The notes: generated by a model from the sequence alone, not told the origin. 12,085 nt of DNA from Fibrobacterales bacterium (GCA_051532055.1 JAOPTX010000089.1:1-12085), one strand, 5' to 3'; positions 1 to 12,085 are shown, counted from the stretch's first letter. Numbers and translations: made by a program.

Positions 1-50
1 TTGGTGTTCAAGAACTCTAAGTTTGCCCGTTTTCGTTCGTCCTTTGCCAT
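1..50 (-). CDS. 5' end of a divergent gene truncated by the window edge (MAKDERKRANLEFLNT...); candidate integrase/tyrosine recombinase by position only
   Basis: Minus-strand AAGGAGG (56-62) lies 5 nt before ATG at 50, and the frame is open to the window edge. Only 16 codons are visible, so the product is inferred from its position divergent from the first cassette. Confidence 0.6.
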   Translation of the reverse strand, partial: MAKDERKRANLEFLNT

Positions 51-70
51 TCTGTCCTCCTTTTGGTTTT

Positions 71-98
71 CCTAACTGTATCATTGTTTACAGTTAGG
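71..98. promoter_or_regulatory. Perfect inverted repeat, 10-bp arms with 8-bp spacer; candidate operator or recombinase-binding site
   Basis: CCTAACTGTA (71-80) / TCATTGTT / TACAGTTAGG (89-98), directly upstream of the divergent gene's RBS. Confidence 0.5.
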
Positions 99-109
99 TG
101 AGGGAGAGG

Positions 110-143
110 CTCTATCCCTATAATAGAGAACGTTGTGGGAAAT
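110..143 (+). other. attI-like primary recombination site (core GTTG at 132-135)
   Basis: ACGTTGTGGGAAAT fits the RC-GTTG-N6-AT cassette-start motif, and 132-141 is the exact reverse complement of 1459-1468. No attC-like left arm precedes it, unlike all later junctions. It contains TATAAT at 119-124. Confidence 0.6.
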
Positions 144-155
144 GGCTAACCTTTG

Positions 156-1385
156 TTAATATAAATCATTTCTGTATGGGCTATTATTTCCATCACAGGC
201 TTCTTCTTCATTAACTTTCTCAGATGAGAAAAACTTTGATTTTTTTGGAATGGTATATTCTGGATAACAAGCATCAGGTAAGTAATGTTGATTTAAACTT
301 AATTGGGATTCGATGAAATTCTCATGAAATTTTTCTGGAATTAATGAAAGTATATACCCGAAATAACAACCATAATAATATTCAGAAAACTCGAAAGAAG
401 CCCCTAAACATTGAGGAAAAATTTCAAATGGTTCGACGTTAATTAACAGTTTCGAAGCTATAGATGTGTAACTGCTTTCATTTTTATTTAACAATAGTTT
501 CAAGTGGAATGACTTTGATCTTTCTTGAGTATCAGTGATCATATCAATAGAATCGAGAGATAAGCTGTTTATTGTTTGGTAATTGTTGATATTGAAATCG
601 ATAATAGCAATAACTTTTTCATAAATTGATTTATGATTTGCCCAAAGATTTAATTCTTGTAATTTTAGTTTGCTTGAATCTAAGTTAATTCTATCTCGTT
701 GATACAATTCAAGATTAAGAAAATTTGCTAGCACATTTGGGTCACTATAATTATGTAAATGATATAGGCTTATTTTCATACTCTCGTTTAACAATGATTG
801 GCAATAATTATAACGGTTTTTATAACTGATTAAAGTAAATCCATGTTTTTGACTAAGGAAAGGTTGTGAATTGTAAAAACAAGTCAGAATTGATTTTACA
901 GAAATTAGACTATCAGGGATTGTTATAGGATTTGATAAATCTTTTAACCTGGGTTTTATGTCTGCCCTTTTTTCTAAATGATGGGCTAACGAAATTTGGT
1001 TTTTAATCAAATTATATGTTTTTACTAATCGTTTTTTAAAATGTAAATTTGGAAATTTTAATATTACTTCATTCCGTTTCACTAAAGGCGCTAGAAGCAT
1101 AACTGAACTAGTTGAATCGAAGAAAATTCGATGGAAATCGGCTGTTATTTTAATATATTCATCTGGGAAATCGGCTAATTTTAATTTTAATGCTTTATTA
1201 ATTTTATTATAACTCTTGAAATCACTCTGTTGTAGTTCATTAATTTTAAGCGAATCTTTAATACGAATGAATATTTTTTGAATATCAGATATTTGCTTTA
1301 TTTCATAGATTAATTTTTCGTCTTTAATATCAGGATAGCAATTTACAATAAAAACTATTGAAACATATATTAGGTAATTACGCAT
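156..1385 (-). CDS. Hypothetical protein, probable lipoprotein (cassette 1, reverse orientation)
   Basis: ORF of about 409 aa from ATG at 1385 (the track starts at TTG 1394). The N-terminus MRNYLIYVSIVFIVNC resembles a lipoprotein signal peptide. No recognisable domain. Confidence 0.75.
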   Translation of the reverse strand: MRNYLIYVSIVFIVNCYPDIKDEKLIYEIKQISDIQKIFIRIKDSLKINELQQSDFKSYNKINKALKLKLADFPDEYIKITADFHRIFFDSTSSVMLLAPLVKRNEVILKFPNLHFKKRLVKTYNLIKNQISLAHHLEKRADIKPRLKDLSNPITIPDSLISVKSILTCFYNSQPFLSQKHGFTLISYKNRYNYCQSLLNESMKISLYHLHNYSDPNVLANFLNLELYQRDRINLDSSKLKLQELNLWANHKSIYEKVIAIIDFNINNYQTINSLSLDSIDMITDTQERSKSFHLKLLLNKNESSYTSIASKLLINVEPFEIFPQCLGASFEFSEYYYGCYFGYILSLIPEKFHENFIESQLSLNQHYLPDACYPEYTIPKKSKFFSSEKVNEEEACDGNNSPYRNDLY

Positions 1386-1461
1386 TGGGCTCAAAAAAAG
1401 GAATATACAGGTTAATAAAGCTAATATTTTTTAGATCAATTTACGAATAATTTAAAACTTC

Positions 1462-1538
1462 CCACAACAAGCATAGCAGTCAACGTTTTTTTTATGCACT
1501 GAAGTGCAAAAACGCTGCCAACTCTGCAGACGTTGGGC
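1462..1538 (+). repeat. attC-like site 1 (77 bp, family A)
   Basis: CCACAAC...GTTGGGC with inner stems CGTTTTT/AAAAACG and TGCAC-TGAA-GTGCA. The inner 63 nt differ from site 7 at one position. Confidence 0.85.
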
Positions 1539-1716
1539 CCAATAGGTGATAGGATACAGAAGTAGATAGGGAAAGAAATTTATTTACATCGGTTAGTGCC
1601 ACGTCCTAGTGCCGTTATTTTAAGATTAAATAAATAAGGAATTTGGTTGGTAGAAAACAGGACTCGAAAATAGGGAGAATGTTAGTTACTTTTACTTGAA
1701 TACAAAAGAGGGCGAT

Positions 1717-3306
1717 ATGTATAAAATAGTAGTAAGTGTACTGGTATTCTTTATGCTAGCAAAAGGAACCTTTGCGAGCAGTATGATTGTGGGGGATAGC
1801 TCACTTCCTTATAGTATAATGAATGAATCTCAAGTGTGGGATGTAGATACAGTACATCTCTACAATTTAGTTTTATTCAAAGATTCAAATGAATTGACCA
1901 TCACTCCAGGTACAACAGTAATAATGCATAGTGATTCTGCACGTTTAGAGGTGTTTGGTCCAGGTTTTACGGCTGTTGGAACTAAAGAAGATTCAATCAT
2001 TTTTACAACTACTGATTCAAATTATATGGGGGGAGGGCTTCAAGCTTCTCAAAAAATTAGAATTGAATATTGTAAATTTGAATATCAAGAAAGTAATTCT
2101 AAAGATGGAATATTGTTTGCTAGTTCTAACCCATTAGATTCAATGATAATTAGACATTCACTTTTCCAAAATAACCTAGGTCGAAATGCAGTTTCTTTTT
2201 CAGGAAAAGCGTACCATCTGATTGAATCCAACACTTTTCGTAATAATACTCGAGCTATCAAAGTTGCAAATGCACCAAATACCTGGATACAAAATAACAC
2301 CTTTATTGAAAACAGCTCTACTCAGAGTGGCGGGGCTATTCTTATTGAAGGGAATGGTGACCCTTCTGGGTATTTTATCAATAACTGGTTTATTCGTAAT
2401 AAATCAGAGAAAACAGGTGGAGCTGTTCTCATTGAAGATCAGGGGACGGCTCACTTCTATGGTAACTACTTTGATGGTAATATGAGCAATGGCAGTGGCG
2501 GCGCAGCTGCGGCTATTAATGGTGGGGAGTTTATTTTTATCAACAATACTTTTGCCAATAATAGAGGGGGTAATAGTGGCGGCGCCTATTACGCAGATAT
2601 TGGATATGCTGCAATTATCAATTGCCTTTTTTATAACAATAGTGCGCGGGCCGATGGGGAAGAACTCTATGATAGAGTAGGAGGCACCCCACCAACAAAA
2701 TACAGTAAATTCTATTTAAGGGAAGATGGTGACCCTACTGCCGATAGTATGCGCCTTCATTTTGCTGCTACAGATGCTTATGAGTCTTATATTGATCGTG
2801 GTGTTCTCAATTTCGATACCGTTAGTTACCCAACTTATCATAATGGACTACCTCCAATCTACATGCCTTACTATGATATTAATGGCAATCCACGTGTAGC
2901 AGGAAAATCAATTGATCTTGGCGCTATTGAACTGGTTAATGATACACTATTGCCCGATACCAGTTGGTATAGTCAGATTCCAATCAATCTTAATGATACA
3001 ACTTCGTTGGTTGACTCTAATGTCACTTCAGTAGTAAGTTACTTATCAAAACAGGTTTTTACTGAGATTCATATTACCAACTACTCATCACATATTACTT
3101 TTGATTTAGAACCAGGAAGTGGAATTAGGGGTAGTGCAAATGGAGCACTGTATACATTGTTTGGAAAAAAAATAACAGGCCTTAAGAAAATATCTCAATC
3201 TAAGTGGTCACTGCAATCTCAATCAGTATCACATGGAGTATACTTGGTTGTTATCGAGTCTACTGCAGGAGTTATTTTAGCGCGACAGATGGTTTCGATT
3301 AAGTAA
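1717..3306 (+). CDS. Secreted right-handed parallel beta-helix repeat protein with choice-of-anchor Q-like motif and C-terminal secretion (T9SS-like) tail (cassette 2)
   Basis: GAGGG RBS before ATG 1717. Signal peptide ending in TFA. Repeated FxxN and GGA(I/V/A/Y) motifs. DINGNPRVAGKSIDLGAIE motif. C-terminal LYTLFGKKI...GVYLVVI beta-sandwich pattern. Confidence 0.8.
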   Translation: MYKIVVSVLVFFMLAKGTFASSMIVGDSSLPYSIMNESQVWDVDTVHLYNLVLFKDSNELTITPGTTVIMHSDSARLEVFGPGFTAVGTKEDSIIFTTTDSNYMGGGLQASQKIRIEYCKFEYQESNSKDGILFASSNPLDSMIIRHSLFQNNLGRNAVSFSGKAYHLIESNTFRNNTRAIKVANAPNTWIQNNTFIENSSTQSGGAILIEGNGDPSGYFINNWFIRNKSEKTGGAVLIEDQGTAHFYGNYFDGNMSNGSGGAAAAINGGEFIFINNTFANNRGGNSGGAYYADIGYAAIINCLFYNNSARADGEELYDRVGGTPPTKYSKFYLREDGDPTADSMRLHFAATDAYESYIDRGVLNFDTVSYPTYHNGLPPIYMPYYDINGNPRVAGKSIDLGAIELVNDTLLPDTSWYSQIPINLNDTTSLVDSNVTSVVSYLSKQVFTEIHITNYSSHITFDLEPGSGIRGSANGALYTLFGKKITGLKKISQSKWSLQSQSVSHGVYLVVIESTAGVILARQMVSIK

Positions 3307-3409
3307 TTATGAAGTGGATATTCGAACTAGGTAACAAAACCCTTTCTTGTGATTAAAGCCGATGTAAATAAATTTCTTAGGTGAGACATTATTGATAATC
3401 ACCTACTGG

Positions 3410-3487
3410 GCTCAACAAGCATAGCAGTCAACGTTTTTTCTATGCACTGAAGTGCAAAAAACGCTGCCAACTCTGCGAGCGTTGTAG
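3410..3487 (+). repeat. attC-like site 2 (78 bp, family A)
   Basis: GCTCAAC...GTTGTAG. Near-identical to sites 1 and 7, with one extra A and GAGC instead of AGAC before GTT. Confidence 0.85.
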
Positions 3488-3592
3488 CCAATTTAAAAAG
3501 GGACAGGTAAGTGCCTTTGGCAATAATTAGAAAAAACAAAGCCCAACTCTCCACCTAAAAAATCTCAAAACAGAATAAATACCAAGAATGCC

Positions 3593-3615
3593 GTTACCTT
3601 GGGGTAACCTTTTTT
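3593..3615 (+). promoter_or_regulatory. Palindrome GTTACC-TTGG-GGTAAC followed by a T-run; operator or intrinsic terminator upstream of the TIGR02147-like gene
   Basis: 6-bp perfect arms at 3593-3598 and 3603-3608, then T6 at 3610-3615. Confidence 0.4.
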
Positions 3616-3675
3616 CGTCTAATTCTATTGTAAGCCAATTTTAATATATATACCTTATGCAAGAGGTAAAAAACT

Positions 3676-4503
3676 ATGATAAATATTTTTGAATACACTG
3701 ACTATAAAAGCTTTCTAAGTGACTTTTACGAGTTTAAAAAAGGAGAAAACTCTAACTTCTCCTACCAAACCCTTGCTACTAAGGCGGGGTTTAAGAATAA
3801 AGGATTTGTGTATAATATTTTTAAAGGAAACAAAGGATTGTCAAAATCCAATATCTTTAAGTTAACACAGGCACTTAGCCTAAATAAAATAGAGACAGAA
3901 TACTTTGAAACACTCGTTACCTTTCAAAATGCAGAGTCTTTAGAGGAAAGGAATTTTCATTTTGAAAAAATGAATACACTTTATGCTAAAGGAATAGCTA
4001 AAGAGCCTTTGAGAATTAGACAAGATAAATTCGAATTATATTCAAATTGGCATCATTCAGTAATTAGGTCATTAATCGACATGTATCCATTTGAGGGTGA
4101 TTATAAATGGCTTTCAAAAAAGGTAAAGCCTTCCATTACAGTAAAAGAGGCAAAGGCTTCAGTTGCTCTATTAGAAAAGCTAGAACTTGTTGGAATAAAT
4201 AAGAACGGGAAATATGCTGTTAAAGATAAAAATATTACAACAGGTAAATCGGTACTTAGTTTAGCGGTTCAAAATTTCCATTTAGAATGTACTGAACTGG
4301 CAAAACAAGCCATTTTATATACACCCTCTACTAGGAGAAATATTACAGGACTAACTCTTGGTATTTCTGAAAAAGCTTATCACACAATTTGTGCTGAGAT
4401 ACAAGCTTTTCAAAAAAACATTATTAACATCGCAAATGCAGACATGAATTCAGATAAAGTGTACCAATTCAACTTTCACCTGTTTCCACTTTCTGAAGCT
4501 TAA
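3676..4503 (+). CDS. TIGR02147 family protein (Fibrobacter paralogous family, DUF4423-like, N-terminal HTH-like region) (cassette 3, gene 1)
   Basis: 275 aa. Characteristic IFEYTDYKSFLSDFYE start, FSYQTLATKAGF, YSNWHHSVIR, RRNITGLTLGIS and VYQFNFHLFPLS end. GAGG RBS. Confidence 0.9.
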   Translation: MINIFEYTDYKSFLSDFYEFKKGENSNFSYQTLATKAGFKNKGFVYNIFKGNKGLSKSNIFKLTQALSLNKIETEYFETLVTFQNAESLEERNFHFEKMNTLYAKGIAKEPLRIRQDKFELYSNWHHSVIRSLIDMYPFEGDYKWLSKKVKPSITVKEAKASVALLEKLELVGINKNGKYAVKDKNITTGKSVLSLAVQNFHLECTELAKQAILYTPSTRRNITGLTLGISEKAYHTICAEIQAFQKNIINIANADMNSDKVYQFNFHLFPLSEA

Positions 4504-4518
4504 CTAAAAGGACAAATC

Positions 4519-6270
4519 ATGAAACATACATTAAAATATCTTTACCCTTTACTACTATCACTATTTTTTACGTATTGCAGTATGGGGGAATCTAATCTTA
4601 CCGGTAATTCAACTCAAACGGGTAATCCTGAATTGGCAATGATACTCTATAATACTGATGGGACTGTAGCAGATAGTGCAACTGTCGAAGTTTATGAAAT
4701 TGAGAGTACTACAATCGCTTTTAAAACAGTTACTGATAGTAATGGCCAATACTCCCTTTCTGGTTTAAATGGAACGTATAATATTTGGGCATCAAAAGAT
4801 TCATTAGCTGCTTTTCAGGATTCAGTATATATCTTCTCGGATACAAATTATGTAAGAAGAGATACATTGAAATCCACTATACATGCACGAGGTAAAGTAG
4901 CATTGCAACCTGGGGATGATTTCCAGACTGTTACCGTGAATGTACTGGGGTCATATAAATTTGCAAATGTTGATTCATTAGGTTTCTTCACTTTATCAAA
5001 TATGCCCAAAGGTGAATATAATTTAAGATTCGAAACAACTCTTCCAAATTATACAACTACCTATTCACCTGTAACAATAGTTAGTGATACATCGTTCACA
5101 TATGTCGATCCTTTTGAGTTGATCTATACTGGTATTCCATTGGTTACAGGACTAATAGCTCAATATGATACTACTAGCGGTGTGATGACTGTTTCTTGGG
5201 ACTCGATATCATATCCTGGAATTCAAGAATACTTGGTTTATAGACAAGAAGATTCGGCAAAAACTATTGCTACAATCCCTGTAGGAAAAACTACAAGTAA
5301 TATTTTTAGTGATTCTCTTTATTCAGGTGATTTTCCGTATATTAATGATCAGTTATCTCATAACTTACAGTATAGAGTAAAAATACGGAATACTTTTGAT
5401 GAAGAGGGAGGGGTTAATGGGTATGCTCAAGCTACAGCAGTCCCCTCTCAACCATTGAGAGCTTTTGCAGGGAATGATATTCTTGTCCTTACAAATAGTG
5501 TTGTGAATTTACAAGGTTATGCAACTGGGTTAAGGGATATTGTAAAGTACGAGTGGGCATTTGGGTCTATGGATAATTTTGTTCAGACTAGTACAGGGGA
5601 TACAAATGTTGTTGCTCCAAGTACAGAGATAGATAACTATCCATGCTTTTTTCGAGTTACAAATAGTGATGGCATAATTGTCACTGACTCATTAATTCTA
5701 GATGTAGAGGGGATTATCGTTTCATCACATAGTTCAAATGAAATAGTTACTGAAGTATTTACTTTACAGGGGATGGCTTCATCAAATGTTACAGAAATTA
5801 GAGTTGAATTCATGGGGGTAACTGTAAGTGCAGTAAACAATTCAAATAGCTGGAGGGTTGATGTTGACTCTAGGATTGTATATCCAAGTTTTGAGACAGA
5901 AATTATAATTATAGGATTAAATGAATCAGAAGTGATTTCATCTAAATCAATGATAGTGTCAGTTAAAAATCAAGACCCAATAATAGGCAAGTGGTCTTGT
6001 TCTAAAAAATATGATCATTCAACAACGGCTAACGCCCCTGTAATTGATGAGTTCTTATCAAATGGTAGTCTAGGGCAAATTAATATATTTAATGGAGATC
6101 CTAAGTCATGGATGTTAAATGGAAAAGATTATTACTTATACGGAGCGTATAATGGCTTAATTACAATTTCACCTACTTTTCACAATTACAACCTTATGAG
6201 TTATACATTGAATAAAGACAATGCAAACTATGCAACAAGCAATTCAACTATAACATGTTCTAGAATGTAA
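4519..6270 (+). CDS. Lipoprotein with carboxypeptidase-regulatory-like domains, FN3-like, PKD-like and Ig-like beta-sandwich domains (cassette 3, gene 2)
   Basis: 583 aa. AAAGGA RBS, 15 nt after the previous stop. Signal ...LFFTYC then GNSTQTGN. TVTDSNGQYSLSGL.GTYNI and VDSLGFFTLSNMPKGEYNL repeats. AFAGND...IVKYEW PKD-like pattern. Confidence 0.8.
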   Translation: MKHTLKYLYPLLLSLFFTYCSMGESNLTGNSTQTGNPELAMILYNTDGTVADSATVEVYEIESTTIAFKTVTDSNGQYSLSGLNGTYNIWASKDSLAAFQDSVYIFSDTNYVRRDTLKSTIHARGKVALQPGDDFQTVTVNVLGSYKFANVDSLGFFTLSNMPKGEYNLRFETTLPNYTTTYSPVTIVSDTSFTYVDPFELIYTGIPLVTGLIAQYDTTSGVMTVSWDSISYPGIQEYLVYRQEDSAKTIATIPVGKTTSNIFSDSLYSGDFPYINDQLSHNLQYRVKIRNTFDEEGGVNGYAQATAVPSQPLRAFAGNDILVLTNSVVNLQGYATGLRDIVKYEWAFGSMDNFVQTSTGDTNVVAPSTEIDNYPCFFRVTNSDGIIVTDSLILDVEGIIVSSHSSNEIVTEVFTLQGMASSNVTEIRVEFMGVTVSAVNNSNSWRVDVDSRIVYPSFETEIIIIGLNESEVISSKSMIVSVKNQDPIIGKWSCSKKYDHSTTANAPVIDEFLSNGSLGQINIFNGDPKSWMLNGKDYYLYGAYNGLITISPTFHNYNLMSYTLNKDNANYATSNSTITCSRM

Positions 6271-6299
6271 TTGTAAATATTTGTCCCTTTTTAAACTGT

Positions 6300-6378
6300 C
6301 TACAACAGCCGAAGCACGCAAGCTTTTATCTATGCACTGAAGTGCAAAAAGCCTGCGTACATTCGCCAGACGTTGCCT
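6300..6378 (+). repeat. attC-like site 3 (79 bp, mosaic)
   Basis: CTACAAC-AGCCGAAGCACGCAAGCTTTT...AAAAGCCTGCGTACATTCGCCAGAC-GTTGCCT. The apical TGCACTGAAGTGCA is shared with family A, while the arms resemble sites 5 and 6. Confidence 0.85.
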
Positions 6379-6548
6379 GCAATTACAAGTGACTGAAAGT
6401 GTATTGGTAAAATATTTTCAAATGGTGCAGAAAGGCCCACGTCCTGTGGGCTGAATATATCTAAATCTTGAGTCCCTACTGGAATTGAACGTAAGTTTTC
6501 GTATATTTCTAATACAAGCTTTATCAATCATATTTTCTAGGGTTTATC

Positions 6549-7724
6549 ATGAAAACATTTTTATTACTTCTGCTCATTTTATCACTTCTTGCATGTAATG
6601 ATGAAACCACAGTTGCATCGGATCATAATGAATTATCATCAAGTAGTTCAATGATCAATACAAGTGTTCAACATGGTCTTATAAGTTCTGCACAATCTAT
6701 CTCAAGTGACTTTATTGATTTAGTTTCATCTAGTTTTAATTCAGAAAGCTCTGGTGTTACAATATCCACAGAATCTGGCACTAAGGAACACTATATAAGT
6801 TATAGTACAAATGATAATAACTCTTCATCGGAAGATGGTTACGCAAAGGGGGGAATAACAGGGAAATATGATCACTTATTTGCACATACTGCTAAATATC
6901 CAGATCCTGAAAAGACACTTTGTGAACAATTACCAGGTTATTTTAATTCTAATATTCGATTGGGAGGGGTTGCTGCATTTGGAGTGTCAAATAATGGAAC
7001 AATGTATTTATTAGATTCAAACAAACTAGATTATGGGCCGAAATGGAATTTATTTCGAGGTGATAAATATTTACGTAATCAGATAATTTCAGGTTATGAT
7101 CATGGGGATGGTGAGTATGAGATTGAATTTGAAAATGTAATTGACAAATTTGGGAACCTTAATGAGTCTAATATTGTTGTTCATTTTGAAAACAATAAAG
7201 TTGATAGTATTATTCCATGTCCTGCTAATAATAGTGATGAATGTGAATCCCTAGATATTATAGAGTGGAATGATATGGAGTATGAAGTGAAAAATTATCT
7301 GTCAATGAGTAGAATTAGACATGTTGGGAAAACAATAGAAAATGAATATTTGATTGTTTTAGAGGGAGTTTATCAAAGTTCAGAAGATCAATCGATTACA
7401 TTTTTCGGGAAACCTGGTGAATTAGTAATTGCAGCTCATTGGGAAAGTGAGTTAGGGGGTGGTTTTGAAGCATTTAGAATTGGTGATTTTCGGTACGAAA
7501 TGAAAAAAGAAGATGTTTATGATGATCAATGGTACTTAAAAGAATATTCTCTTAAAAAAATTAATATTAAAGATTACCTCGATAACGTAAAACCCCTAGA
7601 GTCAACGACTCAAAACCTTTATAATGTAGAAATAACAGATGAATTGCTTGGGTCTCTAGGATTTGATTGCAGTGAAAATATAACACGAAGAGAAAGAACT
7701 GGTTCTGTTATACCTTATATTTAA
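6549..7724 (+). CDS. Hypothetical lipoprotein with Ser-rich N-terminal linker (cassette 4)
   Basis: 391 aa. MKTFLLLLLILSLLAC lipobox, then a Ser-rich region and an acidic, probably beta-rich domain. Confidence 0.8.
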   Translation: MKTFLLLLLILSLLACNDETTVASDHNELSSSSSMINTSVQHGLISSAQSISSDFIDLVSSSFNSESSGVTISTESGTKEHYISYSTNDNNSSSEDGYAKGGITGKYDHLFAHTAKYPDPEKTLCEQLPGYFNSNIRLGGVAAFGVSNNGTMYLLDSNKLDYGPKWNLFRGDKYLRNQIISGYDHGDGEYEIEFENVIDKFGNLNESNIVVHFENNKVDSIIPCPANNSDECESLDIIEWNDMEYEVKNYLSMSRIRHVGKTIENEYLIVLEGVYQSSEDQSITFFGKPGELVIAAHWESELGGGFEAFRIGDFRYEMKKEDVYDDQWYLKEYSLKKINIKDYLDNVKPLESTTQNLYNVEITDELLGSLGFDCSENITRRERTGSVIPYI

Positions 7725-7760
7725 TTTGTCTAATAAAAAATAGATCAACAATATAGTCTT

Positions 7761-7804
7761 TCCCGCCACTCCACATCCCTGGTTGCGTGGCGGGAGCACC
7801 TTTT
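7761..7804 (+). terminator. GC-rich stem-loop downstream of the cassette 4 gene; possible terminator
   Basis: TCCCGCCAC (7761-7769) pairs with GTGGCGGGA (7787-7795). The T-tract is short and offset. Confidence 0.35.
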
Positions 7805-7851
7805 AAAAAAAATTCAAAATCAACAGTATCTCGTAAGTCACTTGTAACTGC

Positions 7852-8036
7852 AGGCAACAGGGTGAGCAAGCAATAACCGTTTCGTAAGTGAACTGCATTC
7901 AGCCGGTCGCTAAAGCTCCTCGTCCTCATGCAACCCAAGCAAAGCTAGGGAGTTCACTAACTCCACTTTTTAATCCAAAATCGTAAAGACCGATTTTGGA
8001 TTAAAATTACTGCCAACTGGCACCCGGACGTTGTAA
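7852..8036 (+). repeat. attC-like site 4 (185 bp, long branched type)
   Basis: AGGCAAC-AGGGTGAGCAAGCAATAA...TTACTGCCAACTGGCACCCGGAC-GTTGTAA. Internal branches include a perfect 16-bp stem (7968-7983/7991-8006) and a segment shared with site 6. Confidence 0.75.
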
Positions 8037-8321
8037 GACATTGGCACACAATCTAGAGGGGCCGTGTGGGCTAAAATTTAAAAAAATATAATCACAGCTC
8101 TGGCAGTTCGTTGCATTTTTTAAAGCCCACCTGACAAGTAGACTGAATCACTGGGCTTTCATATTGCATGACATTGCTTTCCTTTTAATTTGAAAGCAAT
8201 ACTCGCTTTGCTCGTGTCATGCAATATTCAGCCCTTTAAGCAGCTCACCCTCCCTGAATGTGTAGTTTAGTCAGGTGTAGTGGCTATTTGCCCCTCTAGC
8301 TTGGCACCAACGTCTTACAAC
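8030..8321. other. ORF-less, highly structured cassette 5 (possible ncRNA, promoter cassette or structural ssDNA element)
   Basis: Bounded by the inverted repeat 8030-8044/8307-8321. No ORF of 60 aa or more. Multiple nested stems, e.g. ATATTGCATGACA 8161-8173 with TGTCATGCAATAT 8215-8227. Confidence 0.7.
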
Positions 8322-8383
8322 AACCGTAGCACGCAATAGTTTCTTTTAATATGAAACTACTGCGTACTCCGGCCACGTTGTGC
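8315..8383 (+). repeat. attC-like site 5 (69 bp, shortest)
   Basis: TTACAAC-AACCGTAGCACGCAATAGTTTC-loop-GAAACTACTGCGTACTCCGGCCAC-GTTGTGC. Confidence 0.8.
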
Positions 8384-8395
8384 AATATTATTCAG

Positions 8396-8422
8396 TGGGA
8401 GCAAATAGTCGCTTCGCTCCCA
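8396..8422 (-). terminator. Stem-loop just after the stop of the reverse-oriented cassette 6 gene; possible terminator
   Basis: TGGGAGC (8396-8402) pairs with GCTCCCA (8416-8422), 13 nt past the stop codon at 8436. No clear U-tract. Confidence 0.3.
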
Positions 8423-8435
8423 GTGATTTTAAAAT

Positions 8436-10631
8436 TTAATTGAGAAGTAGTGGAGTTATTATTGTGGGTACAATGTTTTTATTTATGTAACTTATGTTAT
8501 CTAAGTAACCATCTCCCATTGCCCATCTCAAAGTATGTTGACCAGCAGGTATGTCGATCGTTTCAGTAAACCAAACTCCATTTTGCCCCAGGTATTGCCT
8601 TTGTGTAAGTGGTTTTTCGATGTCATTAATTAAGAACTTAGTTTCAACAAATTCAGGACTTCTGTTTCTAGAGTTGTCAAGTGGACCTATAACATGAAAA
8701 TTATTTTGCATCCATCTAAATGATAATTCGCCAGGTCCATAAACCTCAGCAGATACATATTGAGGGTCTGCAAATAAGTGGTCACAATTGGTGTCGTAAC
8801 TGTAGTCAACAGTGTATCCTTGGTTGTATAAAGCCATTCCACCGGTGGCTCCTGGTACAGGTAAAAATTCGATTTTATCATCAATTGAAAATGATAGGTA
8901 GGAATTGTCTAAAACTTGGTTTACTGGCGAACTATATAAGTAATTTGGTTCGTAAATATAGGGAGGGATTCTATGTTCATCTACTAATTTGGTTTGATGA
9001 ACATCAACTTCATATTTAGTTATAAATTCATTATATTGTTTTTGTCCGTGTCCATCTGTATATTCAAATTTTAAATAGACATCCATCATCATCTTAGGGC
9101 GCCCTATCACAGAATTTGCATAACTAGAGTATGTTGGATCTATTGCGATTATTTTTATTTCATCAAAAGGTTTAAGTGGTACCTCATCATAATCAATTCC
9201 ATATTCATTATGTTGTAAAATGCCCCACATTTCGTATGGTAACTTTTGGTTAATGGGTAGAGGGGATCTTGGGATACCAGTACTTCTACTAATTTCAGAG
9301 CTCATTTTGAATTTGTATTTCGCGTTTACTAATTTGTTACCTGATTCTGGGTTAATAACTAAATTACCACCTCCTACTGGGTCTTGAACATGTATGTAGT
9401 GTGTGTTTGTTCCTTTAACAACCACAAGTGTAGCTTTAGGTAAATCCTTTAATTTAAACAGACCTAGTTTTTTAATTTCTTCAGATTTTGCAACGTAGGG
9501 AATTTCAGCTTGATTGTCATAATTTGTTCCTAATATTGGAACGCTTGATTCAAAAGGTGTTGGTGATATGTTTTGAATGTTACCATCCAACTGTACTTTT
9601 GATTCTTTAAAATTAATTGTTGTATGGCCAGCGTATCTAGCAACTTTTGTAATTAGGTCTAAACCTCCAATTTTTTCACTTAAATCATTTTCTGTGACTT
9701 TTTCTAGTTTTTCTCTGAGCTTATCATAATCACTTGAAAGAGGAAGCATTTTAACAAATTGATTTTTAATGCCGTCAAGAGCCATTCCACCAACAAAAGG
9801 AACTAAATAGTCTCCGGCTTTCTTTAGGCCTGTGCCGATTACACCGTTAAACAGATCGTCATTATCATTTGTTGGGATAGGTTCTTTTATTGTACCTGTC
9901 ATTTGGATGTCATCAATACGAACTTTATTGGTTTCAAAATGAAATATTAAAGATTCATCGGTAATATCTTTTTCTTGATAATCTAAAGGAATATCAAGTA
10001 CAAACCATTTTTTCACAATGTTTTTATTAAGTACTTTTTTCTCGAGAGGCATTGTTTGTGTGTTATAATGGTGAGGAAGTCCCCAGTTTTCAGGTAATGA
10101 AAACTCTCCATGTCCAAGAAAATAATGATGATTTGAAAATGTATCGATGTCTTTTTTAATGGCAACTCGACTCTCTAATGTTTGTGCCTCAGTATCATCT
10201 ATGTAGTTATAAATATAATAGCGAAGGAGACCACGATATTTATTATATAAGACAAAATATGGCACGGCTTCCCTTATACCATGTTTGGTAAAGTCATTAG
10301 GATCTGAGTAAACTTCACTATTAGTTGAGTAATCCTTAGAATCAGTAACAAAGATACGGCGCGTATAAAGTGTCCATCCGTCAAGATTGTTTTCGGTCTC
10401 TTTTAGGCTAAAGTAACTATTATATCCGTCTTTTATGGTAGGTTTCCCAGTTGATTCCATACTATAGACATCACCCTGGTATGAATTAAATTCGTTCCAC
10501 CAGTTTGAATCCCACCATTTCCAACTATGGGAAGGATCGTGGTTAGCAAGCATTGCATTTGGAGGAATATAACCTGCATTTACGAAAGTAATAAGTTGAG
10601 TGAGAATGAAAAATATTATTGCTTTTTTCAT
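8436..10631 (-). CDS. Large secreted hypothetical protein with C-terminal beta-sandwich domain and hydrophobic PxIIxPLLLN tail (cassette 6, reverse orientation)
   Basis: AAGGA RBS precedes ATG 10631, giving 731 aa with signal peptide MKKAIIFFILTQLITFVNA. The track start at 10745 lies within the cassette terminal repeat. C-terminal GPGELSFRW...IPAGQHTLRW pattern. Confidence 0.8.
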   Translation of the reverse strand: MKKAIIFFILTQLITFVNAGYIPPNAMLANHDPSHSWKWWDSNWWNEFNSYQGDVYSMESTGKPTIKDGYNSYFSLKETENNLDGWTLYTRRIFVTDSKDYSTNSEVYSDPNDFTKHGIREAVPYFVLYNKYRGLLRYYIYNYIDDTEAQTLESRVAIKKDIDTFSNHHYFLGHGEFSLPENWGLPHHYNTQTMPLEKKVLNKNIVKKWFVLDIPLDYQEKDITDESLIFHFETNKVRIDDIQMTGTIKEPIPTNDNDDLFNGVIGTGLKKAGDYLVPFVGGMALDGIKNQFVKMLPLSSDYDKLREKLEKVTENDLSEKIGGLDLITKVARYAGHTTINFKESKVQLDGNIQNISPTPFESSVPILGTNYDNQAEIPYVAKSEEIKKLGLFKLKDLPKATLVVVKGTNTHYIHVQDPVGGGNLVINPESGNKLVNAKYKFKMSSEISRSTGIPRSPLPINQKLPYEMWGILQHNEYGIDYDEVPLKPFDEIKIIAIDPTYSSYANSVIGRPKMMMDVYLKFEYTDGHGQKQYNEFITKYEVDVHQTKLVDEHRIPPYIYEPNYLYSSPVNQVLDNSYLSFSIDDKIEFLPVPGATGGMALYNQGYTVDYSYDTNCDHLFADPQYVSAEVYGPGELSFRWMQNNFHVIGPLDNSRNRSPEFVETKFLINDIEKPLTQRQYLGQNGVWFTETIDIPAGQHTLRWAMGDGYLDNISYINKNIVPTIITPLLLN

Positions 10632-10746
10632 ATATATCCTTAAAGATTTGTTATTAGTATGTGTATTAGACGAATATGGTACTTGAATTGGGAATTTTTT
10701 TTCAAATCCGCTTCGCGCGATAAAGATACTCCCACTGAATAACATC

Positions 10747-10928
10747 GCACAACAGCCGAAGCAAGCAATTAACCTCTCCTCAATTCGTGTAGTTCAGCCG
10801 GTCGCTACGCTCCTCGGATTCACTACAACCCAAGCAAAGCCTGGAACTTATTGAGTCGTTTTGCTTCGCCATTTTCCTGAAAATGAAAATGACGGCAATT
10901 AACTGCTTACGTTCGGCAAGCGTTGAGT
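10747..10928 (+). repeat. attC-like site 6 (182 bp, long branched type)
   Basis: GCACAAC-AGCCGAAGCAAGCAATTAA...TTAACTGCTTACGTTCGGCAAGC-GTTGAGT. Shares TTCAGCCGGTCGCT and ACCCAAGCAAAGC with site 4. Confidence 0.78.
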
Positions 10929-11077
10929 ACAATACCAAAGAGCGAGACAGTATTTTAAGATATGAAGTATAGATCTGTATTTTAGATATATCGTTTTGAG
11001 GTATTCTTATGATAATACGCCAATATAATCCTAATTGATTTCTATAATTGATGGTGATTTTATGAAGTGAGTTCACT

Positions 11078-11896
11078 ATGTTAATTAGGTTTGTATTAAT
11101 AGTTATATGTGTTTTAACCATGAGTTGTTTTAAATCTGAGTCTGATTTGGGTGTAACTCAGGATACCGGAATACGCTTTAATTTTTTTGATTTGCCAAAT
11201 AATTATTTGGATAGTCTAAAATCAACATTGGAAAGTAATGATATAAATCAGTTAAATGATGTAGGATTAAAAAATTTACAGGTGTTTATTGAAAACAGTA
11301 TTATACAAGGAACTAGGTCAAATAATATATTAGGTAACTATTTTTGGTCTGTGCTCTATAATTTACCGGAATTTGTTGAGGAAAAGAATAACGGCTATTA
11401 CTGGGAATCCGAAAAACAGTTGATAAATGAAAAACTTAAATCTTATGCAATTTATCGTATAGCAAGAGATCAGAAAAATATTACAAGAATCTACGAAATA
11501 TTTAAACCATGGGTGGAATCTTTAGTTAGTAAAGAGTATGCAGATTCAATTGGTGTAACAAGTTTTATAACTCAACGAATTAGAGTACTTGATACTCTTC
11601 AAAAACTAGACTTTAAGAATCCATTCGATAATGTTAGTAATTTTTTAGATTCCGCGACTGGGGTATGGCGGCAAGTAGAAAATTCACATTATTATGACAC
11701 TGTAACAAATGGTAATGCTATGACTGCTGATGAATTGAACTATATGTTATATCAGGAGTTGGTAAAGTATAATACATCTTTTGAAGTTGTAAATTTGACG
11801 GGGTATGACTTTTGGTTTAGGAGATATCGGGAAGATAATATTGACGTGGTATATTCAATATTAAAAGATTTAGAACAATTGTTTTCTGATGAATGA
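11078..11896 (+). CDS. Hypothetical lipoprotein (cassette 7)
   Basis: 272 aa. MLIRFVLIVICVLTMSC lipoprotein-type signal. Probably helical, no recognised domain. Confidence 0.8.
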   Translation: MLIRFVLIVICVLTMSCFKSESDLGVTQDTGIRFNFFDLPNNYLDSLKSTLESNDINQLNDVGLKNLQVFIENSIIQGTRSNNILGNYFWSVLYNLPEFVEEKNNGYYWESEKQLINEKLKSYAIYRIARDQKNITRIYEIFKPWVESLVSKEYADSIGVTSFITQRIRVLDTLQKLDFKNPFDNVSNFLDSATGVWRQVENSHYYDTVTNGNAMTADELNYMLYQELVKYNTSFEVVNLTGYDFWFRRYREDNIDVVYSILKDLEQLFSDE

Positions 11897-11995
11897 CTTT
11901 TAGTTTTATATGAACTGTGTGAATTTTCATATATACTATTAAATATCGAGTTATCTATCATGAATATCACAGCTTCGCATGCTCTTTGGTACTAT

Positions 11996-12072
11996 ACTCA
12001 ACAAGCATAGCAGTCAACGTTTTTTCTATGCACTGAAGTGCAAAAACGCTGCCAACTCTGCAGACGTTGGTG
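11996..12072 (+). repeat. attC-like site 7 (77 bp, family A)
   Basis: ACTCAAC...GTTGGTG, near-identical to site 1. It is followed by GTTG-GTGGAC-AT, the start of an 8th cassette. Confidence 0.85.
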
Positions 12073-12085
12073 GACATAGGAATGG

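Follow-up and report, generated by a model that had tools for sequence, protein, structure and literature searches.

The DNA considered here (the window) is the whole 12,085-bp contig C89 from the genome of a Fibrobacterales bacterium (G000), an assembly of 5.17 Mb in 181 contigs with a completeness of 94%. With a probability that can be put at roughly 0.6, the window belongs to an integron-like array of cassettes in the chromosome, and the enzyme acting on it would most likely be P0001, a XerA-like tyrosine recombinase of 364 amino acids (aa) encoded on another contig of the same genome (C46; contigs are given as C-numbers throughout). This reading builds on observed elements: the sites and their fold, the cassette boundaries, a cassette (E) present in two contexts, and the adjacency of P0001 to sites of the same kind at a locus that is syntenic in a congener. 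The window has a lower G+C content than the genome (34.0% vs 39.7%) and carries seven co-oriented hairpin sites, which are called class B because the genome has a second class of hairpin sites (class A). All seven had been claimed by an earlier reading of the sequence alone, and they were found at the places given by it, on the plus strand only, with none elsewhere in the window:

1465-1535, plus strand: site 1, 71 nucleotides (nt) from CAAC to GTTG
3413-3484, plus strand: site 2, 72 nt from CAAC to GTTG
6303-6375, plus strand: site 3, 73 nt from CAAC to GTTG
7855-8033, plus strand: site 4 (long), 179 nt from CAAC to GTTG
8318-8380, plus strand: site 5, 63 nt from CAAC to GTTG
10750-10925, plus strand: site 6 (long), 176 nt from CAAC to GTTG
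11999-12069, plus strand: site 7, 71 nt from CAAC to GTTG

Neighbouring sites lie at most 2.8 kb apart, and their two halves follow patterns that are far from chance: CAACA-N5-AGCA-NN-CAA matches seven times in the window against 0.00 expected from 200 shuffles of it, and CTGC-NN-AC-N9-12-GTTG seven times against 0.03. The left spacer measures 7 nt in 7/7 sites and the right one 9, 9, 11, 12, 9, 11 and 9 nt, exactly as had been counted before, and the cores are mostly non-canonical, since RYYYAAC is matched by two of the seven left cores and GTTRRRY by two of the seven right ones; CAAC and GTTG, for their part, are invariant in 19/19 aligned short sites. With a threshold of E<=1e-5, a covariance model of class B built in this analysis (R1) detects 33 sites, distributed over 14 contigs of G000; it recovered 5/7 window sites in one search and 6/7 in another, missing the long site 4. 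A stem-rule scanner of our own for AACA ... CGTT hairpins was dropped, as it returned 221 matches genome-wide while missing 4/7 window sites, and the sole Rfam match in the window (RsaJ, 22 bits vs a gathering score of 100) is a chance one. The long sites 4 and 6 have an inner inserted module in common (...GTTCAGCCGGTCGCT...CAACCCAAGCAAAGC...), to which stretches of 68-249 nt on at least six other contigs (C141, C45, C100, C33, C72 and C47) are related.

The sites delimit the following units:

133..1535, plus strand: cassette A, reversed 412-aa open reading frame (ORF) 156-1394 (minus strand) and site 1
1533..3484, plus strand: cassette B, secreted beta-helix (NosD-like) ORF 1696-3306 with likely ATG at 1717, and site 2
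3482..6375, plus strand: cassette C, two ORFs (3676-4503 and 4519-6270) and site 3
6373..8033, plus strand: cassette D, ORF 6549-7724 (391 aa, no family found) and long site 4
8031..8380, plus strand: cassette E, no ORF of at least 50 aa, site 5; second copy on C100
8378..10925, plus strand: cassette F, reversed 769-aa ORF 8436-10745 (minus strand) and long site 6
10923..12069, plus strand: cassette G, ORF 11078-11896 (272 aa) and site 7
12067..12085, plus strand: opening bases of a further cassette, TTGGTGGACATAGGAATGG, up to the end of the contig

Two lines of evidence define these boundaries. The first is a complementarity between the two ends of each cassette (the flank rule), scored as the number of paired positions between the 10 bases after a GTTG and the 10 bases before the next CAAC. 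In the window, all six neighbouring site pairs score 8-9/10 (cassettes B, C, F and G 8/10 each, cassette D 9/10), and the bases after the CGTTG at 131-135 pair 7/10 with those before site 1. Genome-wide, 14/20 neighbouring site pairs reach at least 7/10, against 0/29 pairs in which both flanks come from a single site, and a score of at least 8 is attained by 3.1% of 812 other pairs. The second line is cassette E, since window 8025-8380 is 98.6% identical over 357 nt to C100:10101-10457, and this likeness is sharply bounded, starting at the upstream (A)CGTTG and stopping at its own CGTTG, with unrelated neighbours on both sides; even the hairpin upstream differs, being 179 nt long in the window and short on C100. 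Taken together, cassette E and the flank rule establish that the unit runs as TTG-flank, cargo, flank', CAAC, hairpin and CG, which is the layout of an integron cassette, with the site at the 3' end and the right-hand core as the point of exchange. The cassette array with integron logic proposed from the sequence thus finds its backing in the flank complementarity and the duplicated cassette.

The same evidence bears on the simplest alternative, i.e., that the hairpins are ordinary intergenic repeats between fixed genes, of the type of repetitive extragenic palindromic sequences (REP), bacterial interspersed mosaic elements or miniature inverted-repeat transposable elements. They are indeed palindromic, number about 40 copies in the genome and are the target of an IS1111-type insertion sequence (IS), some relatives of which target REP sequences according to the accessible text of PMC11187229. 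Nevertheless, ordinary repeats would leave unaccounted for the cassette-specific flank complementarity, the precise boundaries of the duplicated cassette E, the co-oriented clusters on 14 contigs and the unrelated first cassettes at the syntenic locus described below. Moreover, among 151 sampled genomes from the phylum, R1 finds matches in only one besides G000 (i.e., one of the other 150). This explanation is therefore regarded as very nearly negligible.

The alignment of 19 short sites of G000 (five from the window and 14 retrieved from other contigs with a strict pattern) folds into a hairpin made of a 5-bp R box, a 15-bp stem whose first 8 bp are the L box, and a small helix at the tip. 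Paired cells amount to 79.9%, against 69.4% in shuffled alignments (0/500 of which reach the observed value) and 27-41% with slid partners; compensatory changes are found in 7/24 pairs, and the covariation score is 0.243, compared to 0.063 in shuffles. Three pairs (columns 17/83, 25/70 and 31/64) are non-standard in 19/19 sequences, being A·C or C·A, and a fourth A·C position lies in the flanks, formed by the A after the N6 on the right and the C before the N6 on the left. All four invariant positions become G·T wobbles on the bottom strand, which is why only that strand is predicted to fold well: its fold is the stabler one in 7/7 window sites and in 28/29 sites genome-wide (means of -19.3 vs -14.7 kcal/mol). 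The class-B L box pairs 8 on 8 without any bulge, the spacer is partly paired instead of presenting an unpaired central 5/6-nt stretch, and it is on the R'-L' arm, beside CGTTG, that the short window sites have their 2-5 surplus unpaired bases (in site 3, five such bases with one opposite). Class B shows no single-base extrahelical bulge on the R''-L'' arm, where the portion of PMC2727003 available to us describes an extrahelical G as 'absolutely conserved' and essential to the strand choice of attC sites. The departure from the canonical attC geometry that had been suspected is, in consequence, borne out by the folds, the alignment and the comparison with that source.

The same genome supplies the canonical counterpart. 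A true integron integrase is encoded at C108:7906-9270 (minus strand), with 372.6 bits for TIGR02249 against a cut-off of 265 and with the IntI-type insertion, which carries an LPxALxRK...WQWxFP-like motif. The class-A sites that adjoin its gene have TAAC/GTTA ends and a length of about 125 nt. In the bottom-strand folds of the two whole sites folded (2/2), the R stem measures 8 bp, a further helix 4 bp and the unpaired spacer 4+4, and a T and a G bulge out of the R''-L'' arm, i.e., the textbook attC geometry as presented in the excerpts of PMC2727003. Class A, located by BLAST, occurs on seven contigs including that of the integrase, and class B on 14 contigs at E<=1e-5, yet no contig holds both; on the IntI contig, R1 gives no class-B match even at E<=10. 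There is also a second IntI-like gene at C44:9986-11191 (L038:3987-5192), encoding 401 aa; its 193.6 bits for TIGR02249 fall short of the cut-off. An insertion is retained where IntI has its own, although with a diverged motif, and the gene is conserved in the congener G001 (C36:137226-138104); R1 detects no class-B site within C44:6000-24000.

The recombinase that does stand beside class-B sites is the following:

C46:14354-15448, minus strand: P0001, 364 aa, XerA-like tyrosine recombinase

P0001 is divergent from its array. A GTTG junction lies 187 bp past its start codon, and the bases after it pair 9/10 with the flank of the first class-B site; the junction is followed by a two-gene cassette, then by a second cassette and a second site cut by an IS copy at the contig end. 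The protein scores 230.2 bits for NF040815 (XerA type; cut-off 220) and only 183.6 bits, in two pieces, for TIGR02249 (cut-off 265), and both its alignment and its BLASTP comparison with the C108 IntI show a gap of 37-41 residues exactly at the IntI-specific insertion. Its residues R225, K250, H314, R317, H340 and Y349 are invariant in an alignment of 18 sequences, and its AlphaFold model (pLDDT 87.5) has two tandem four-helix domains before the catalytic domain, the predicted fold being closest to XerA (5hxy) and VchIntIA (2a3v). Regarding its distribution, homologs of P0001 (E<=1e-40) are found in 2/41 genomes of the order (G000 and G001), the same two in which R1 detects class-B sites, while a true IntI occurs in three (G000, G001 and a further genome of the order, G002). 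The G001 homolog is 56% identical to P0001 and is likewise followed by a GTTG junction (about 155 bp from the recombinase start, in a region unlike that of G000 in sequence), then by a single cassette and the class-B site that scores highest in G001. Upstream of the recombinase, the two genomes share an orthologous gene (70% identity), the compared first-cassette proteins are unrelated, and the class-B sites of the two genomes share 82-95% DNA identity, compared with 70% aa identity for that orthologous core protein. The distinct tyrosine recombinase that had been postulated is therefore supported as an insertion-less enzyme beside class-B sites, both on C46 and at the syntenic locus of G001, although it is not the upstream gene of the window that had been proposed for that role: checked as a possible typical IntI, that ORF (156-1394, minus strand) shows no recombinase domain (its sole Pfam match is DUF7634, with 17.8 bits below the cut-off of 27) and is the cargo of cassette A. 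In another family of the phylum, a genome (G130) has one class-B-like site (R1 42.5 bits, C103:975-1083) and a co-oriented recombinase of 436 aa (C103:6086-7396, L087), insertion-less in comparison with P0001, with the site about 5 kb downstream; this locus was set aside as support, a single site being too little.

A competing explanation is that the class-B sites behave as a CALIN (a clustered group of attC sites without an integron integrase), so that the IntI of C108 or the IntI-like gene of C44 recombines them in trans and the position of P0001 is due to coincidence or to a secondary insertion. An intact IntI well above its cut-off is present, IntIs tolerate very different attC sequences (as stated in the accessible parts of PMC4889954 and PMC2727003), and class B keeps the AAC/GTT triplets together with the G after AAC on the bottom strand that the latter source, as far as available, reports as common in attC sites. 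Furthermore, the exchange point deduced from the boundaries of cassette E is canonical, and many class-B clusters are far from any recombinase. What makes this explanation rather unlikely in our view is that class B is without the R''-L'' bulge that is called essential for strand choice in the consulted section of PMC2727003, and which the class-A sites of the very same genome do have as a bulged G and T. In addition, the two classes were never found on one contig and R1 detects no class-B site either beside IntI or around the C44 gene (C44:6000-24000); the arrangement of recombinase, junction and class-B site has been kept in the congener at a recombinase identity of 56%; and G002 has an IntI and no class-B site.

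If P0001 is instead the enzyme of the array, a mechanism can be proposed in which each cassette ends in a class-B site whose bottom strand, once single-stranded, would fold into a hairpin comprising the R box (CAACA/CGTTG), a spacer with the 2-5 extra bases on the R'-L' side, the L box (GCANNCAA/CTGCNNAC) and a variable tip. P0001 would bind this folded bottom strand, its presumed substrate, at the R and L boxes and cleave it in the R' core, the partner being either the junction beside its own gene or another site. The exchange point lies within the G/TTG of the right-hand core or beside it, which is also where integrons recombine, and because of this position an excised circle would rebuild a stem of greater length at R, AC-N6-CAACA ... 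CGTTG-N6'-AT. Strand choice and polarity would presumably come from the G·T/A·C positions and the one-sided bulge by R', in place of the extrahelical G that the IntI insertion reads. For Xer enzymes, action on folded single strands has a precedent in the CTX phage. On this basis, the genome would host two orthogonal gene-capture systems, a classical one made of IntI and attC and a Xer-type one whose recombinase would never have gained the insertion and whose G·T-coded class-B sites carry the asymmetry on the other arm, a proposal that we favour only tentatively, at slightly less than even odds.

Whether such a system may be active at present is a separate matter, on which the left end of the window is informative:

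1..130, minus strand: right end of an IS110/IS1111-family IS, transposase start codon at 50, gene running off the contig
131..135, plus strand: CGTTG, R' remnant of a split class-B site, at the IS junction

The 'lone core' described upstream of the array is accordingly not an attI: it is what remains of the right end of a class-B site after this element split it. Bases 1-136 are 97.8% identical to C122:1719-1854, a contig that has the whole transposase of 441 aa, which matches PF01548 and PF02371 (DEDD, IS110/IS1111 family); the element is about 1.76 kb long (C122:87-1848), with the longer non-coding region downstream of the transposase gene. Its ends were also found on C46, C141, C136, C33, C75 and C47, and the three left and six right ends in the genome all occupy a single position in class-B sites, where the right spacer meets CGTTG, the right end abutting CGTTG, CATTG or CGCTG at the six places. 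At C47:68766-68790, only about 45 nt of the right end are present and may be a remnant. These copies are the reason why the arrays are broken into many small contigs. The preference itself has known parallels, since in the available text of PMC11187229 relatives of this family target one end of attC sites; the IS1111-attC group cited there (ISPst6, ISKpn4) shares with the window element the DEDD/IS110 family, the long non-coding region downstream and the insertion at one fixed point, at one end of a recombination site, and differs in that the window element targets the non-canonical class B, immediately 5' of CGTTG.

A third explanation is that the sites were once mobile under either enzyme and are now static, the repeats acting at most as terminators or insulators. 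IS copies split at least 3-6 sites, some cores are degenerate (CGCTG, CGATG, CGTCG, GTTT), and no excision junction was detected among the assembled contigs of one public DNA run that holds the window (sampled-word share 0.97) and may be the source of its DNA: eight joints were seen, of which all but one had little coverage (depth 6-27, when the main form has about 480), and these can be explained by paralogous sites. The deeper joint, from 7854 to 11999 (depth 485), was rejected as an excision product, as it equals the locus C45:5388 with the same left flank. In the opposite direction, the 357-nt copy of cassette E, 98.6% identical in two contexts, points to recent movement, the active-site columns of P0001 are conserved, and the sites are 82-95% identical in DNA between congeners whose core ortholog is 70% identical in aa. 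A wholly static array is consequently deemed improbable.

Relatives of P0001 outside the phylum were sought in a scan of species-representative genomes, which gave 36 loci. Thirteen of them encode insertion-less recombinases of 347-361 aa that form one well-supported Bacteroidota clade (NCBIfam was run on two of them). Repeat arrays are present in 6/7 of the loci that have at least 3 kb of downstream DNA, and five other loci end within about 1.1 kb of the recombinase gene, as expected if repeats broke the assembly. The insertion-less 347-aa recombinases of Flavobacterium and Spirosoma, for instance, head arrays of sites of about 126 nt with the form YAACA ... RRRA-CGTTR, in which the flank rule is obeyed at 6/6 positions by 10 of the 12 consecutive pairs read and at 5/6 by the other two, and the base behind GTT changes in step with the one preceding AAC. 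In the sites of these Bacteroidota-type arrays, the bottom strand is the stabler one in 17/23. The architecture is thus common to the Fibrobacterales and the Bacteroidota arrays. R1 run on the 36 loci returns, besides the congener site, four weak matches of 16-27 bits, three of which fall on sites later found independently through their repeats (the fourth being at L057); these hint at the shared architecture but fall short of detection.

Several observations weigh against the view of the window as an array moved by P0001. The window itself encodes no recombinase, and its contig cannot be joined to C46; the IS has three left and six right ends in the genome. Many class-B sites are far from P0001 (e.g., on C3, C47 and C72). 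As G000 and G001 each hold a true IntI and a second IntI-like gene, co-occurrence does not discriminate between the candidate enzymes, and G002 is the only genome that separates them, with an IntI, no close P0001 homolog and no class-B site. Within the array, 6/20 neighbouring pairs fail the flank rule with scores of 3-6, some of them perhaps owing to undetected intervening sites, and 2/7 large ORFs are reversed relative to the sites. To this must be added the missing excision product in the public run. Finally, a tree of 45 recombinases (quick method) does not group the Fibrobacterales clade (100*) with the Bacteroidota array clade, with an SH-aLRT of 86% for its placement and open neighbouring and deep forks, so that common descent of the two systems does not follow.

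Concerning the cargo, the ORF of cassette B matches NosD in Pfam with 40.9 bits. The two ORFs of cassette C encode a member of the Fibrobacter-specific paralog family TIGR02147/DUF4423 (3676-4503; 279.6 bits for TIGR02147) and a lipoprotein with CarboxypepD_reg domains according to Pfam (4519-6270), and the former points, as far as its family assignment goes, to at least part of the cargo being drawn from the gene pool of the lineage itself. The reversed ORF of cassette F has its only homolog among the 41 genomes of the order in G001 (39% identity), where it ends 10 bases before a class-B site. NCBIfam yields only TIGR02147 and a weak NosD match on the window ORFs, and PADLOC assigns 0/7 of them to defence families. 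Cassette E, of 347 nt, contains a long imperfect palindrome at about 8160-8250 and may hold a small RNA, a promoter or a tiny peptide; Rfam recognises nothing in it. A DNA search of the window against G001 returns matches at sites and cassette ends only, which, with orthologs at 70% aa identity, says little about the cargo. The start TTGGTGGACATAGGAATGG of the last, truncated cassette also follows an IS end on C136 and, in G001, the recombinase-proximal junction and the first site. Likewise, window 6376-6455 and 7760-7854 match C45:1544-1623 and 5294-5388, meaning that cassettes of about 1.5 kb and 3.8 kb between sites (window and C45, respectively) have their first ~80 nt and last ~95 nt in common, including terminal inverted repeats that extend about 22 bp past the GTTG/CAAC cores. 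Cassette ends apparently fall into families, each re-employed for differing cargo.

The special value of this genome lies in the presence, side by side, of a classical integron and of a Xer-type one with separate site classes, which makes it a natural control in which a canonical integrase with canonical sites can be compared to an insertion-less enzyme with another geometry. Integrons are both defined and searched for by the IntI insertion and the extrahelical bases of attC sites. If a Xer-type enzyme does move cassettes, gene capture through folded hairpins would be broader than integrons as now defined, and standard searches may under-count such systems in the Fibrobacterota-Chlorobiota-Bacteroidota group. 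In that case, the G·T/A·C code would be a simple and testable rule for strand choice. If the two systems are orthogonal, the IntI insertion and the extrahelical bases would be dispensable for folded single-strand recombination of the integron kind, and the Xer-type systems of Fibrobacterota and Bacteroidota would either be a sister group older than integrons or have arisen independently. Since the cargo consists of lineage-specific secreted proteins and lipoproteins and not of resistance genes, the interest of the system is evolutionary and mechanistic rather than clinical.

As to the systems already described, the window resembles a CALIN, by the spacing criterion only, in that its seven sites share a strand at intervals below 4 kb and the contig has no integrase. 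However, CALINs are defined through matches to the attC model of IntegronFinder in the accessible text of PMC4889954, and here an insertion-less enzyme is syntenically tied to the sites. The same text (Cury et al. 2016) defines IntI by the insertion and states that attC-adjacent recombinases without intI_Cterm 'are not IntI', and the consulted part of the IntegronFinder 2.0 report (PMC9024848) lists for Bacteroidetes only In0 elements and one complete integron. A likeness, by description, is also found with rAID-1 (recombinase-associated acquired interbacterial defence), whose clusters occur in 226/423 Bacteroidales genomes (Ross et al., bioRxiv 10.1101/471110) and consist, in the accessible accounts (10.1101/471110; PMC12247911), of a XerD-family recombinase by a low-GC array of short genes for which active gene acquisition was suggested, membership requiring that a XerD-like recombinase with 44% identity or more to BF9343_RS08045 stand 5' of two or more co-directional genes. 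Both systems have a Xer-type recombinase beside the array, low GC and conserved intergenic motifs. They differ in that the rAID-1 recombinases are co-oriented with their arrays, whereas P0001 is divergent, and in the cargo, which comprises type VI secretion system immunity genes in rAID-1 and secreted proteins and lipoproteins here, with no immunity or defence family found; those accounts, insofar as they are available, give motifs only, with no hairpin geometry, exchange points or strand asymmetry. The novelty claimed for the window must be narrowed accordingly: the site geometry does differ from the canonical one, but XerD-family recombinases beside integron-like arrays had already been published (rAID-1; 10.1101/471110, in its accessible text). 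Neither the site geometry, the exchange points and a G·T code of Xer-type arrays nor a Fibrobacterota system was found in the literature searched, the rAID-1 papers coming nearest and subscription journals being outside its scope.

A further comparison is that with sedentary chromosomal integrons such as the Vibrio cholerae superintegron. Common to both are the co-oriented cassettes ending in imperfect AAC/GTT hairpins, the exchange at the G/TT of the right core, the preference for bottom-strand folding, the divergent recombinase gene with an adjoining putative insertion junction at a conserved locus with variable cassettes, and the targeting by IS1111-type elements. Unlike the integrases of those integrons, P0001 is devoid of the IntI insertion (about 35 residues near patch III) and has an extra N-terminal four-helix domain. 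Class B, in turn, is without the extrahelical G/T on the R''-L'' arm and presents instead the 2-5 extra R'-L' bases by the R box, spacers of 7 and 9-12 nt in place of 5 and 6, a fixed R core (CAACA/CGTTG) followed by six cassette-specific bases, and, on the bottom strand, G·T wobbles at four fixed positions; the window cassettes, some of them with two genes, are large (0.35-2.9 kb).

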